From Phycisphaerae bacterium (GTDB taxonomy: Bacteria; Planctomycetota; Phycisphaerae; WQYP01), in contig DASZZD010000032.1 in assembly GCA_035545015.1 (NCBI GenBank), forward strand, positions 1 through 64,000: 64,000 bases of DNA, written 5' to 3'. The notes beneath the pieces are model-generated. The model worked only from the letters and a program-made list of their open reading frames with translations. It was not told the origin of the DNA and ran no database searches. A program made the position numbers and the translations under genes. Position 1 is the stretch's first letter. Every line of letters starts with the position of its first letter. This document shows, one piece after another, positions 830-4,254 of the stretch.

Positions 830-845
830 GGGGTTCAGTTGGGGG

Positions 846-869
846 ATTGGTTCAATTGGTTAAATTGGG
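846..869. repeat. short tandem heptamer/octamer repeat (GATTGGT TCAATTGG TTAAATTGG) flanked by G-runs
   Basis: Direct inspection. Belongs to the AATTGG/GGTAATT heptamer repeat family seen at other loci. Confidence 0.5.
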
Positions 870-949
870 GGGGGCACGGGCGGTGAAAGGGAGCGGGGGC
901 GGCGGCGTCTTGAGGGTGGGCGATAGGGCTTCTTGGCGGATGTGGTGCG

Positions 950-3355
950 ATGGCGACGGATATTGAGCAGATTCAGTTGTATGCCCGGACGCGGGATGCG
1001 GGGGCGTTTGCGGCGCTGATGGCGGCGTACACGGACATGGTGTTCGCCACGTGCCTGCGGATCCTGGCGAATCGCTCGGAGGCGGAGGACGCGACGCAGG
1101 AATGTTTCTGGCGGCTGGCGCGGGAATCGGCGGGGATACGGACGTCGGTGGGGGCGTGGCTGCATCGGTGTGCGACGAATGAATGCATCACGCGGAAGCG
1201 GCGGAAGACGGCCAAGGCGCAGCGTGAATTGGCGTATGAGCGCACGCGGCAGGCGGAGCGGGAGGAGGCGTCGGAATGGCGGGAGGTATCGCCGGCGGTG
1301 GATGAGGCGCTGGAGGAGTTGCCGGAGGAATTGCGGACGCTGTTGATCGGACATTTTTTGCAGCGGCGGACGCAGGCGGAACTGGCGGCGGAGATAGGGG
1401 TATCTCCGGCGACGATGTCGCGGCGGCTGGCGGAGGGCGTGGAGCTGATTCGCAAGCGGCTCAAGGCGCGCGGGGTGATCGCGACGGCGGCGGTGTTGAC
1501 GGTGTTCCTGGCGGAGCGGACGGCGAGCGCGGCGACGCCGGCGGTGGTGGCGGGGTTGGGGAAGATGGCGCTGGCGGGCCCGCCGGCGCATGCGCTGCGA
1601 TGGACGCTGCGGGCGAAGGTGGCGCTGGCGGGAGCGACGGTGGCGGTGGCGGCGGGATTGGTGTGGGGCGGGGAGGCGTATCGGCATCGGCATGGGCGCG
1701 GGGAAGCGGCGGCGGGAGCGGCGGTGGCGCGGGCAAGCGATGGGAAGGTGGAGGCGGGGACGTCGATGACGGAGCCGGACATGCGTGCGCCGGCGGAGGC
1801 GTACACGTTGCTGGCGCGGATTCGCAATGGATTGCCGGAGGTGGCGGGGGATGATCCGCTGGGGGCGGCGCGGGAACTGGCGGCGCTGGGGCCGACGGCG
1901 ACACCGGCGGTGGCGGCGGAACTGGATCGGTCGACGCGCGAGGATGAGCAGCGGGTGTTGATCTGGGTGATGCGGGTGATGGGGGATCGGGCGGCGGTGC
2001 CGGCGCTGTTGCGGGCGATGCCGCGGTTATCGGGAGATGCGGTGGCGTATGAGGTGGCGGTGAAGGATGCGGGGTTGCGTGCGTATGTGCGGTCGCACGA
2101 GCCGGCGGGGGTGATCGGATTTGCGGCGCCGGCGGTGGGGTTGCAGCCGGCGCGGGTGGAATGCGTGGCGGCGCTGGAGGCGTTGACGGGGCAGCGGGCG
2201 GTGTACACGGTGGAGCGCGGGGTGCGGCGGCCGGTGGCGGACGTGTGGGTGGCGTGGTATGCGGCGCATGGGGACGGCGGATCGGCGCAAGACGCGCTGT
2301 CGGCGCCGGCGGCGAAGGATGATCCGGTGGGGGTGGCGGGCGAGCAGGCGCTGGGAGCGCTGTTTCCGGCGGGGCCGCAGGTGCGGTTGACGGAGGTGCG
2401 CGAGGTGGTGCTCGATGCGCGCGCGGGTTGGAATGCGCAGGCGTATGTGGATCTGGATACGGGGGCGCGGCTGGAGCGGAACCAGGGGTGGGTGGATCAC
2501 GGCCAGCATTCCAACGCGGATTGGCCGCGAGAGGCGGGAGTGGATTTGGCAGTGGAGAGCGCTGGCGGAGCGGTGCGGGTGCGAAGTCTTGGGATGCGGG
2601 TGTGGCCGATTGAAAATGAGCGGTTCGAGACGTTTCCCGCGGAAGTGCATTTGAATGGGTCGGTGGACATGGGGGATGCGGGGCCGGTGGCATTGCGGGA
2701 GACGCTGGGGGCGGAGGCGCGGACGTATTTGTTCACGACGCGCGAAGGCGGACGCGGGGTGATGCAGGCGGCGCTGGTGAGCGAGGCGGCAGGTCCGGCG
2801 GTGCGGGTGCGGTATCGGTTGTTCGAGGGCGGAAGCGTGGCGCGGGCGCCGCTGGCGGGAAAGTTTGGCGCCCCCCTACCGGCGGCGGCGACGCGGATGG
2901 CGGGGCAGTTTGCGCCGGAGCGGGAAGTGGAATTGGGCAGCGGGCGTGTGGAACAATCGATGGCGTTGGATGTGGATACCGGGGCGCTGCGTGCGGATGC
3001 GCCGGATGCGGATGCGGGGGAGCTGACGGAGGCGAAGGTGCGGTGGCTGCGGGAATGGGGCGGCGACCTGGTGGTGTTGCCGGCGCCGGCGGAACATGAA
3101 TCGGCGGTGGCGGCGGATCGGCTGGTGGCGCTGCCGGTGACGGCGGACGCGTGGGAGAAGATGCAGCCGGGTGAGGCGGCGACGCTTTTGCTGCGGCGGG
3201 ATTCGTCGGTGGATGCGACCCAGGCGATGCTGCACGTGGGGGCGGGGCAGGTGGAGACGTGGGTGTTCCAGACGCGCGAGGGATGTGCGGGGCTGATGCA
3301 GGTGGAAGGCGAGGGAGCGGGGGGGGTTCGGGTGAGGTATAAGGTGCTGCGGTGA
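950..3355 (+). CDS. ECF sigma-70 factor fused to a transmembrane segment and a large extracytoplasmic domain with an internal tandem duplicated module
   Basis: N-terminus has sigma-70 region 2 (DMVFATCLRILANRSEAEDATQECFWRLA) and region 4 HTH (LPEELRTLLIGHFLQRRTQAELAAEIGVSPATMSRRL). Hydrophobic helices lie at about aa 190-210 and 243-262. The C-terminal region holds two copies of a module (..TYLFTTREGGRGVMQ..VRVRYRL and ..ETWVFQTREGCAGLMQ..VRVRYKVL). Codons are G-ending. Confidence 0.8.
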   Translation: MATDIEQIQLYARTRDAGAFAALMAAYTDMVFATCLRILANRSEAEDATQECFWRLARESAGIRTSVGAWLHRCATNECITRKRRKTAKAQRELAYERTRQAEREEASEWREVSPAVDEALEELPEELRTLLIGHFLQRRTQAELAAEIGVSPATMSRRLAEGVELIRKRLKARGVIATAAVLTVFLAERTASAATPAVVAGLGKMALAGPPAHALRWTLRAKVALAGATVAVAAGLVWGGEAYRHRHGRGEAAAGAAVARASDGKVEAGTSMTEPDMRAPAEAYTLLARIRNGLPEVAGDDPLGAARELAALGPTATPAVAAELDRSTREDEQRVLIWVMRVMGDRAAVPALLRAMPRLSGDAVAYEVAVKDAGLRAYVRSHEPAGVIGFAAPAVGLQPARVECVAALEALTGQRAVYTVERGVRRPVADVWVAWYAAHGDGGSAQDALSAPAAKDDPVGVAGEQALGALFPAGPQVRLTEVREVVLDARAGWNAQAYVDLDTGARLERNQGWVDHGQHSNADWPREAGVDLAVESAGGAVRVRSLGMRVWPIENERFETFPAEVHLNGSVDMGDAGPVALRETLGAEARTYLFTTREGGRGVMQAALVSEAAGPAVRVRYRLFEGGSVARAPLAGKFGAPLPAAATRMAGQFAPEREVELGSGRVEQSMALDVDTGALRADAPDADAGELTEAKVRWLREWGGDLVVLPAPAEHESAVAADRLVALPVTADAWEKMQPGEAATLLLRRDSSVDATQAMLHVGAGQVETWVFQTREGCAGLMQVEGEGAGGVRVRYKVLR

Positions 3356-3783
3356 AGGTTATGAAGGCCAAGCAAAGGGCGGGGCGTATTGGGGGCGAAT
3401 ACCTGCGGCTGGTGAAGCGGCTTCCGCTGCGCGTGATCCGGAACGAGCGGGAGTTGGATGCGGCGAGCGAGGTAGCGCTGGAATTGGCGGGGAAAGGCGA
3501 GGATCACCTGTCGGAAGGGGAATTGGAGTATCTGGAGGTACTGGACCGGTTGATTGAGGAGTATGAGGAGCGAGTGCACGCGATGCCGGTGAGTGCCGCG
3601 AATCCGCTGGAACGGCTGCGGTGGCAGGTGCGGGAAGCGGGGATGAATGCGTCGGATTTGGGACGGCTTCTTGGGAATCGAAGTTTGGGATCGCTGCTGC
3701 TGTCGGGGCGGCGGGAGATGTCGAAAGCGCACATTCGGGCGCTCGCGGGGCATTTTCGGGTGGAGGCGGGGTATTTTCTCTGA
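3352..3783 (+). CDS. HigA-like HTH (XRE family) antitoxin/transcriptional regulator
   Basis: C-terminal HTH (MNASDLGRLLGNRSLGSLLLSGRREMSKAHIRALAGHF) matches the HigA architecture. The GTG start overlaps the stop of the upstream sigma-fusion gene in GTGA (translational coupling). Alternative ATG at 3361 with a GAAGG SD. Confidence 0.65.
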   Translation: MKVMKAKQRAGRIGGEYLRLVKRLPLRVIRNERELDAASEVALELAGKGEDHLSEGELEYLEVLDRLIEEYEERVHAMPVSAANPLERLRWQVREAGMNASDLGRLLGNRSLGSLLLSGRREMSKAHIRALAGHFRVEAGYFL

Positions 3784-3793
3784 CGATCGGCGA

Positions 3794-4054
3794 TTAACTC
3801 TGGACCAGGCGGTCGTATTCGGCGTGGGTGCCGATCCAGAACCAGGTGATGAGGTCGCCGCTCCGCCGCGCCAGCGCGCGGTAGTTGCTGTTGACGCGCG
3901 CGGACCAAAGTCCCGGACGAAGTTCTTTGAAATGAAGGGAAGGGTGGAAGGGTTCGGCGTGCCAGATGACGAACTTCTCACGGGCTAATTCTTGAATGGG
4001 CGCGGGGAGCCTTGCGAAATGTTCCCAGAAGGAGCGGCGGGTTTTCGAAATCAC
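3794..4054 (-). CDS. type II toxin-antitoxin system RelE/ParE family toxin
   Basis: 86 aa with a C-terminal signature (ITWFWIGTHAEYDRL) typical of ParE/RelE-fold toxins. Overlaps its upstream antitoxin gene by 4 nt. Confidence 0.75.
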   Translation of the reverse strand: MISKTRRSFWEHFARLPAPIQELAREKFVIWHAEPFHPSLHFKELRPGLWSARVNSNYRALARRSGDLITWFWIGTHAEYDRLVQS

Positions 4055-4254
4055 GGGCCGTCCTCAAGCCGGCCTTCGCGAATATCGTCGTCGACTTGCT
4101 TGAGGAGCGCGTCGAGTTTTCCGGAGTCGACGTCCTGCTTGATCTGCTCGTCCCACTCGTCATCGGTCCATCCATGGAAATAACGGGCGATTTCGGCGCG
4201 CTCCTCAAAGGAGAGTCTGTCGATGGCTGCTTTAATTTCGTCGACGGTGGTCAT
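4051..4254 (-). CDS. addiction-module antitoxin, small acidic protein, partner of the ParE/RelE toxin
   Basis: Internal ATG at 4254 (MTTVDEIKAAIDRLSFEERAEIARYFHGW...). 67 aa and acidic. 4-nt overlap with the toxin. The longer ORF to 4485 is probably a spurious extension. Confidence 0.6.
   Translation of the reverse strand: MTTVDEIKAAIDRLSFEERAEIARYFHGWTDDEWDEQIKQDVDSGKLDALLKQVDDDIREGRLEDGP

Follow-up and report, generated by a model that had tools for sequence, protein, structure and literature searches.

A predicted membrane-tethered ECF sigma factor with a sensor cassette shared with BlaR1-like proteins, followed by an orphan higA, in a Phycisphaerae bacterium

C-terminal extensions represent the second most common mode of regulation of extracytoplasmic function (ECF) sigma factors (PMC7826278). 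Among the described cases in which such an extension crosses the membrane, the sigma/anti-sigma hybrid IutY of Pseudomonas putida (ECF243) is activated by regulated intramembrane proteolysis involving Prc and RseP, and actinobacterial members of ECF48, ECF52 and ECF53 (e.g., SCO4117) combine a ZAS domain with transmembrane (TM) helices and an extracytoplasmic extension, for which proteolytic release has been proposed (PMC8999054). In Planctomycetota, the C-terminal extensions of ECF sigma factors are large and diverse and were gained by duplication and insertion; that of ECF57 contains WD40-like repeats (Pinto and da Fonseca 2020, PMC7671368). Here we analyzed a 64-kb stretch of DNA (positions 1–64,000, hereafter the window) from contig DASZZD010000032.1 of a Phycisphaerae bacterium, in which an open reading frame (ORF) at 950..3355 on the plus strand codes for an 801-amino-acid (aa) ECF sigma fusion and is closely followed by a gene for a HigA-type regulator. 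We consider it likely, at a probability of roughly 0.7, that the fusion is a stand-alone, membrane-tethered ECF sigma factor with a portable periplasmic sensor, and that higA is an unrelated orphan left over from a toxin-antitoxin (TA) locus. A sigma factor with a transmembrane C-terminal extension is a known kind of design; the sensor cassette carried on it is the less familiar part.

Pfam and NCBIfam searches of the 801-aa protein revealed sigma region 2 at aa 23–87 (1016..1210, plus strand; PF04542 (Sigma70_r2), E 1.3e-10; predicted local distance difference test (pLDDT) score of ~90 in the AlphaFold2 (AF2) model) and region 4 at aa 116–169 (1295..1456, plus strand; PF08281, E 9.3e-9, and PF04545), the Sigma70_r4_2 match in Pfam covering aa 116–163, and gave no match to sigma region 3. 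TIGR02937 (sigma70-ECF) scored 74.4 bits against a cut-off of 42.9, and the first 177 aa aligned over their whole length with solved ECF sigma factors such as SigW and SigE. With regions 2 and 4 present, regions 1.1 and 3 absent and the family hidden Markov model above its cut-off, the protein is an ECF (group 4) sigma-70 factor, and the claim made in an earlier sequence-only reading of this DNA, that a single 801-aa polypeptide contains a complete ECF sigma factor, was borne out. All NCBIfam equivalog and subfamily models scored far below their cut-offs. Close homologs over the whole C-terminal region were rare, namely the orthologs P0001, which is from the same species and 98% identical, and P0002, from a Phycisphaerae metagenome-assembled genome (MAG), which showed 76% identity over the full length and 68% over the putative exo-domain. 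The protein resembles other planctomycetal extended ECF sigma factors in that a sigma core is joined to an unrelated large extension, and alignment with planctomycetal paralogs revealed a common linker motif after sigma region 4; however, the cysteine in region 4 carried by the sigma-fused paralogs is missing from the window protein and its extension is not of the WD40 type. The cassette described below was not met in the literature searched on planctomycetal extended ECF sigma factors.

Alignment of the sigma-fused paralogs divided the segment behind the sigma core into a cytoplasmic linker (aa 173–221; 1466..1612, plus strand) and a single predicted TM helix (aa ~222–241; 1613..1672, plus strand; N-terminus inside, C-terminus outside) that is conserved in all of them. 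Two membrane-spanning segments had originally been read here, the first of them inside the present linker. This first segment (aa 176–188) comprises 13 hydrophobic residues followed directly by E189 and R190, and aligns with a Pro- and polar-containing linker in six other sigma-fused relatives, so that only the second is supported as a membrane helix. The second segment is the sole hydrophobic helix conserved across all sigma-fused relatives aligned, the positive charge is usually higher on its N-terminal flank (in most paralogs), and the paralogs P0193, P0266 and P0311 each contain exactly one strong hydrophobic segment, at this position. The full-length AF2 model contains short helices at 180–189 and 198–207 and a 26-residue helix at 214–239. 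The combination of two TM helices with an outside domain was also internally inconsistent, because two helices would return the C-terminus to the cytoplasm, given a cytoplasmic N-terminal sigma core. We conclude from these alignments that the fusion has one predicted membrane pass with its C-terminus outside. In the linker, L187, T191 and L203 are invariant across paralogs of 25–31% identity; no anti-sigma domain was recognizable there, no Pfam or NCBIfam match was found outside the sigma core, and aa 161–255 had no sequence match in the PDB.

The predicted extracytoplasmic part begins with a HEAT_PBS-like alpha-solenoid (aa ~283–360; 1796..2029, plus strand) and a middle alpha/beta region (aa ~361–477; 2030..2380, plus strand) that aligns with the C-terminal region of M56-type proteins, and continues with two copies of a beta domain with an HmuY-like fold, copy 1 at aa 478–626 (2381..2827, plus strand) and copy 2 at aa 652–801 (2903..3352, plus strand). 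The repeat was missed by self-BLAST of the C-terminal region and was recovered by Smith-Waterman alignment with shuffles and by profile searches: the two copies scored 110 against 39.5 ± 8.1 (maximum 82) for shuffled sequences, and a profile made only of copy-1-type sequences detected copy 2 at E 2.5e-5. The proposed duplication of a module therefore stood, but the module is ~145 aa long per copy, not ~100 aa. Analysis of the fold revealed the all-beta architecture of HmuY, and the structural neighbors of the module were HmuY-family proteins, deposited as lipoproteins and haem-binding proteins. In contrast to the HmuY haem-binding lipoproteins of Porphyromonas, Tannerella and Bacteroides, to which no sequence similarity was detectable, the domain here is part of a signaling protein and not of a hemophore. 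No credible Pfam or NCBIfam family was found for the exo-domain or for nine diverse modules; the module had been described as uncharacterized, and the C-terminal region indeed belongs to no curated family, but it is a shared sensor region rather than an orphan domain. A 900-aa sigma-fused paralog in the complete 10.4-Mb genome CP042997.1 (locus L087, 6001–8703), also a stand-alone gene, has a very similar module ending, ..TYLFTTREGGRGILQ..RLRYRMW, and its organism may be more tractable for experiments.

The route to the wider family was a weak match to a third homolog. Over about 350 aa, which take in the HEAT-like solenoid, the middle region and the module, the window protein could be aligned to the C-terminal portion of planctomycetal proteins with CarboxypepD_reg and Big_1 repeats, and in a complete 5.4-Mb contig the cassette lies at the end of a blaI–Peptidase_M56–CarboxypepD_reg–module string. 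A profile search with the cassette against 1.84 billion cluster representatives placed 879 clusters within E≤1e-3, of which 343 remained at E≤1e-30; of the 151 top-scoring matches, 73 had an M56 domain, 7 an N-terminal ECF sigma factor, and 8 two or more modules. The cassette-bearing M56 proteins have the layout of BlaR1, with three TM helices, the protease domain, a fourth TM helix (TM4) and then the cassette, and they adjoin blaI, the gene for a BlaI-type repressor. BlaR1 itself carries an extracellular sensor after TM4. The CarboxypepD_reg, Big_1 and thioredoxin-like domains that accompany the cassette in relatives are usually extracytoplasmic, and one relative has the cassette fused to a thioredoxin/AhpC-like domain. 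Since the same cassette occurs in many planctomycetal BlaR1/M56 proteases, it appears to be a portable input domain grafted onto two output chassis, M56 proteases and ECF sigma factors. In hundreds of planctomycetal M56 proteins, the part after TM4 is thus homologous to the sensor region of the window protein; however, unlike BlaR1 and MecR1, the window protein has no match to an M56 domain (with HExxH between TM3 and TM4) and no BlaI, its output is the fused sigma factor, and the cassette is not a penicillin-binding domain. A literature search on planctomycetal M56 sensors and HmuY-like sensor domains found nothing relevant. One blaI–M56–CarboxypepD_reg–module string (L007, 3540–7537) appears in the gene calls as three successive genes that overlap (359, 556 and 178 aa), probably because frameshifts in the long-read assembly have split a single BlaR1-like protein.

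These relatives also bear on whether the extension is outside the cell membrane at all. An intramolecular regulator that stays in the cytoplasm, with zero or two membrane passes, and touches the sigma core as in ECF41 and ECF42 would fit the weak, Ala/Gly-rich hydrophobic segments and the HEAT repeats, which are common in cytoplasmic proteins, and regulatory C-terminal extensions acting by direct contact are well known (PMC7826278, PMC8999054). We nevertheless regard such a cytoplasmic extension as improbable: the paralogs each have a single strong hydrophobic helix, located at the homologous position, the cassette stands after TM4 in M56 proteins, at the place of the BlaR1 sensor, and is preceded there by CarboxypepD_reg and Big_1 domains, the structural neighbors of the module are HmuY-family lipoproteins and haem-binding proteins, and in the AF2 model the extension is not confidently packed against the sigma core. 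No anti-sigma gene adjoins the sigma gene in the window or its ortholog in locus L001, or the paralog in CP042997.1. Together with the single predicted helix and the shared sensor cassette, this agrees with the earlier description of a one-component ECF sigma factor with a transmembrane, extracytoplasmic C-terminal extension.

A working scheme for such a tethered sigma factor would consist of a cytoplasmic sigma2–sigma4 core, a conserved linker of ~45 aa, one TM helix and a periplasmic sensor of ~560 aa built from the HEAT-like solenoid, the middle region and the HmuY-like-fold beta module, the last present twice here. The sigma factor would be inactive as long as the membrane tether is in place; when the cassette binds or senses a signal in the periplasm, regulated proteolysis would follow and release the sigma core, and the freed core would drive its own promoter and a regulon. 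We infer activation by proteolytic release because of the precedent of IutY, which depends on Prc and RseP, and of the predictions for ECF48, ECF52 and ECF53 (PMC8999054). The window protein resembles IutY in being one polypeptide that begins with an ECF sigma factor and is predicted to cross the membrane once and to have its C-terminal domain in the periplasm, without a separate anti-sigma gene, and in both the sigma factor presumably must leave the membrane. IutY, however, has a FecR-type anti-sigma domain and takes part in TonB-dependent cell-surface signaling, whereas the window protein has no detectable anti-sigma domain but a linker of ~45 aa and a predicted periplasmic part of the HEAT plus HmuY-fold kind, and its proteolysis is proposed only by analogy. 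With the actinobacterial ECF48, ECF52 and ECF53 it shares the long C-terminal extension with a predicted transmembrane part and a predicted outside domain, but it matches no zinc-finger or other anti-sigma family, and both the outside domain and the phylum differ. Because an anti-sigma domain (FecR N-terminal or ZAS) was searched for and not found, the protein does not belong to the IutY or ECF52 type, though it plausibly works like them.

Extending this scheme to the whole family, Planctomycetota may use the HEAT plus HmuY-fold cassette as a portable domain for sensing periplasmic ligands, one that gates proteolytic signaling in two unrelated chassis, BlaR1-type M56 proteases and tethered ECF sigma factors; we hold this broader proposal as tentative and, at present, rather doubtful. 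Given the modeled fold, the ligand could be a tetrapyrrole or haem-like. If the proposal is true, the tandem-module protein without an anti-sigma domain would be a minimal one-protein path from a periplasmic ligand to RNA polymerase. Planctomycetota have very many ECF sigma factors and BlaR1-like proteins with inputs still to be found, and one uncurated HmuY-fold cassette (at least 343 clusters at E≤1e-30) that would feed both kinds of transducer gives a starting point from which to look for ligands and to construct a domain model. A sigma factor fused to this cassette without a recognizable anti-sigma domain would also be a compact system for the study of tethered-sigma release.

The gene behind the sigma fusion (3361..3783, plus strand) codes for a 140-aa protein with a C-terminal Xre-type helix-turn-helix (HTH). 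Its start had been read as a GTG at 3352, which gives a GTGA overlap with the sigma stop codon. That overlap is present in the sequence, but most of the HigA homologs listed are 138–140 aa long and begin with MK, and in the 98%-identical metagenomic strain the gene was independently called from the ATG; the most likely start is therefore the ATG at 3361, 5 nt past the stop. The protein has the length and the C-terminal Xre HTH of the HigA type (~140 aa), matches E. coli HigA (5ifg, 5ycl) at E 0.004 over aa 67–139, the HTH half, and keeps all 17 family-invariant residues; no Pfam model reached threshold. Six-frame searches of the window gave no HigB signal, and no cognate higB lies directly upstream, in agreement with the view of a HigA-type HTH protein without a HigB partner. 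A weak HigB match at 42.3 kb was dismissed since it lies inside a large unrelated gene, and a search within and around the 3' end of the sigma gene gave no higB remnant. In comparison with the HigB(PF09907)–HigA systems (E. coli HigBA; 5ifg, 5ycl, 6jq4), the length of HigA and its C-terminal HTH are the same, but toxin gene, promoter and operator are all missing in the window and a sigma gene precedes higA instead.

We compared 75 higA loci from different species. For the close relatives of this HigA (66–72% identical), the gene immediately before encodes a PF09907 HigB and overlaps higA by 4 nt; of the 75 loci, ~57 have HigB, intact or as a decayed remnant, immediately upstream. About 17 of the 75 loci are without HigB and 5–6 have decayed HigB remnants; the orphan higAs follow unrelated genes, such as those for a pentapeptide-repeat nucleoside triphosphatase, GH95, ATP synthase gamma, a glycosyltransferase and PheS. 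In none of the 75 does higA directly follow a sigma gene. The alternative offered earlier, that the HTH gene is a regulatory remnant of a TA locus, thus gained support, and HigA appears to be an orphan antitoxin and repressor of the HigB(PF09907)–HigA family that has lost its toxin, rather than a conserved partner of the sigma factor. The higBA promoters (L006, 5550–5700; L085, 3545–3700; and ~40 other loci) share TTGACA-17-TACATAATGTA, whose TACATAATGTA part forms a palindrome across the -10 element and likely serves as the HigA operator. Allowing one mismatch at most, 26 of 40 paired loci contained it, compared with 0 of 14 orphans. The palindrome (TACA-N3-TGTA) had no match anywhere in the window, where the best matches contained 5 mismatches upstream of higA and 6 upstream of the sigma gene. 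Binding of HigA to the sigma promoter through the family operator was therefore rejected.

The distribution of the two genes in related genomes revealed that they also occur apart. At the nearest sigma ortholog (L001 and L002), the gene for a PTPS/QueD-like protein is kept upstream, no higA is present downstream, and other genes follow; conversely, a Phycisphaerae MAG (L003) contains a 72%-identical orphan higA in the same groESL-proximal place, with no sigma gene nearby and with other TA modules between it and groESL. This suggested that the window joins a PTPS–sigma block to a higA–TA–groESL block and that the sigma–higA adjacency is a lineage-specific juxtaposition, which is identical in the 98%-identical strain. 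The gap between the two genes showed neither a terminator-like site nor one resembling a sigma-70 promoter, and higA is for this reason probably co-transcribed with the sigma gene. Comparison of HigA with the orphan copy in L003 gave a ratio of nonsynonymous to synonymous substitution rates (dN/dS) of ~0.29, a value that points to purifying selection on the orphan.

That the sigma fusion and the HTH protein constitute a dedicated two-gene module, in which HigA regulates the sigma gene or its regulon, would be in keeping with the 5-nt gap (or GTGA overlap) free of a terminator or promoter, with the same arrangement in the 98%-identical strain, and with an intact HigA that keeps its family-invariant residues under purifying selection. 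We consider it very improbable, since the nearest sigma ortholog lacks higA, none of the 75 higA loci lies behind a sigma gene and most lie behind higB, the orthologous orphan in L003 occupies the same groESL-proximal position without a sigma gene, and neither the region ahead of the sigma gene nor any other part of the window contains the family operator palindrome. Co-occurrence with the HTH gene had been set beforehand as the test of a conserved sigma–HigA signaling pair, and it is not conserved; the two-gene module is largely refuted by these data.

For HigA itself, it is possible, at somewhat less than even odds, that the orphan persists as a factor for anti-addiction or immunity, neutralizing incoming HigB toxins, or as a free-standing repressor of distant genes, in which case its place behind the sigma gene would matter only as a supply of transcription. 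Orphans recur among the higA loci, some beside decayed HigB remnants, the dN/dS value refers to two orphan copies at a syntenic position, and several TA modules lie upstream of groESL in relatives. On the other side, the 64 kb examined contain no operator, and a HigB may exist elsewhere in the genome, the search having covered these 64 kb. According to the preferred reading of an unrelated TA leftover, higA would have lost toxin and operator and would have been kept under purifying selection behind the sigma gene in this lineage only, an orphan antitoxin stranded by toxin loss and rearrangement. The locus is a caution that tight spacing, even overlapping start and stop codons, is by itself no proof of a functional pair.

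Several points weigh against the combined reading of a tethered sigma factor with a periplasmic sensor and an unrelated higA. The protein has no recognizable anti-sigma domain that would explain the silencing of the tethered sigma factor, and the proteolytic step comes from the literature and not from this analysis. The predicted TM helix is Ala/Gly-rich and marginally hydrophobic (Kyte-Doolittle (KD) value 1.63, and below 1.6 in P0002), and AF2 confidence is low in the region concerned, with pLDDT <50 across aa 178–278. The HmuY family (PF14064) was matched by 0 of 9 diverse modules at E≤10, and a sequence-profile search of the PDB with the module gave nothing, so that the relationship to HmuY is one of fold only. 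Finally, HigA could still have a regulatory role specific to this lineage, given that its gene lies only 5 nt from the sigma gene and is intact and under selection.

Upstream of the sigma gene, the PTPS–sigma intergenic region (830–949) is 75% identical to that of L001, at a proportion of synonymous differences (pS) of 0.59 in the sigma gene. It contains direct repeats GGTTCA(A/G)TTGGGG (832–845 and 858–871; 832..871, plus strand) that are conserved with the same 26-nt spacing in L001 and represent a candidate regulator-binding site; the 98%-identical strain (L084) has one repeat unit fewer. A candidate ECF-type promoter, TGAAAG-N16-CGTC, follows at 884..909 (plus strand) and is the single occurrence of this motif in the window, where chance alone would give 0.11. 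Between the window, L001 and L084 the spacer varies, and the -35 and -10 parts are kept; the -35 part reads AAG, the usual being AAC, and the element is hence a candidate only. Autoregulation of the sigma gene through it is possible. The sequence preceding the distant paralog in L087 lacked the motif. The PTPS/QueD-like protein encoded at 41–829 has an N-terminal extension of ~130 aa that is unmatched by the Pfam model, and its gene and the sigma gene keep their synteny in L001, L002 and L084.

Downstream, as had been claimed from the sequence, a ParE-like toxin gene (3794..4054, minus strand; PF24732, E 1.1e-7) is convergent with higA and has its own antitoxin gene (67 aa; 4051..4254, minus strand), behind which it lies. 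The two genes of this separate TA pair overlap by 4 nt, and the antitoxin gene was called in the same way in the 98%-identical strain. The region upstream of groESL contains TA genes in related genomes as well: the orphan higA and the ParE-like pair occupy 3361–4254 of the window, and the corresponding region of L003 (6001–8428) contains the orphan higA with HepT/MNT and Gp49/HTH pairs.

Codon usage had led the whole block to be described as lying in a codon island rich in G at third positions (G3). The richness is real, with G3 of 0.63–0.73 and third-position C (C3) of ~0.10 in the PTPS, sigma and HigA genes, but it is no island of the block, because the minus-strand genes of the same 21 kb mirror it with C3 of 0.57–0.71, and the skew changes sign at ~21.4 kb and again farther along. 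The supposed "G3 island" is a regional strand asymmetry of 21 kb, neither a property of the sigma block nor a sign of recent acquisition; a horizontally acquired island was rejected because the skew follows the strand across both gene orientations and the sigma ortholog in L001 uses C-ending codons. Across positions 1–64,000, the third-position G/C skew is very strong (absolute values up to 0.77) and forms strand-following blocks regardless of gene orientation, the plus strand being G-rich at 0–21.3 kb, C-rich at 21.4–33 kb, mildly G-rich at 34–46 kb and C-rich at 52–64 kb. A rearranged replication-strand bias is one possible cause of these blocks.

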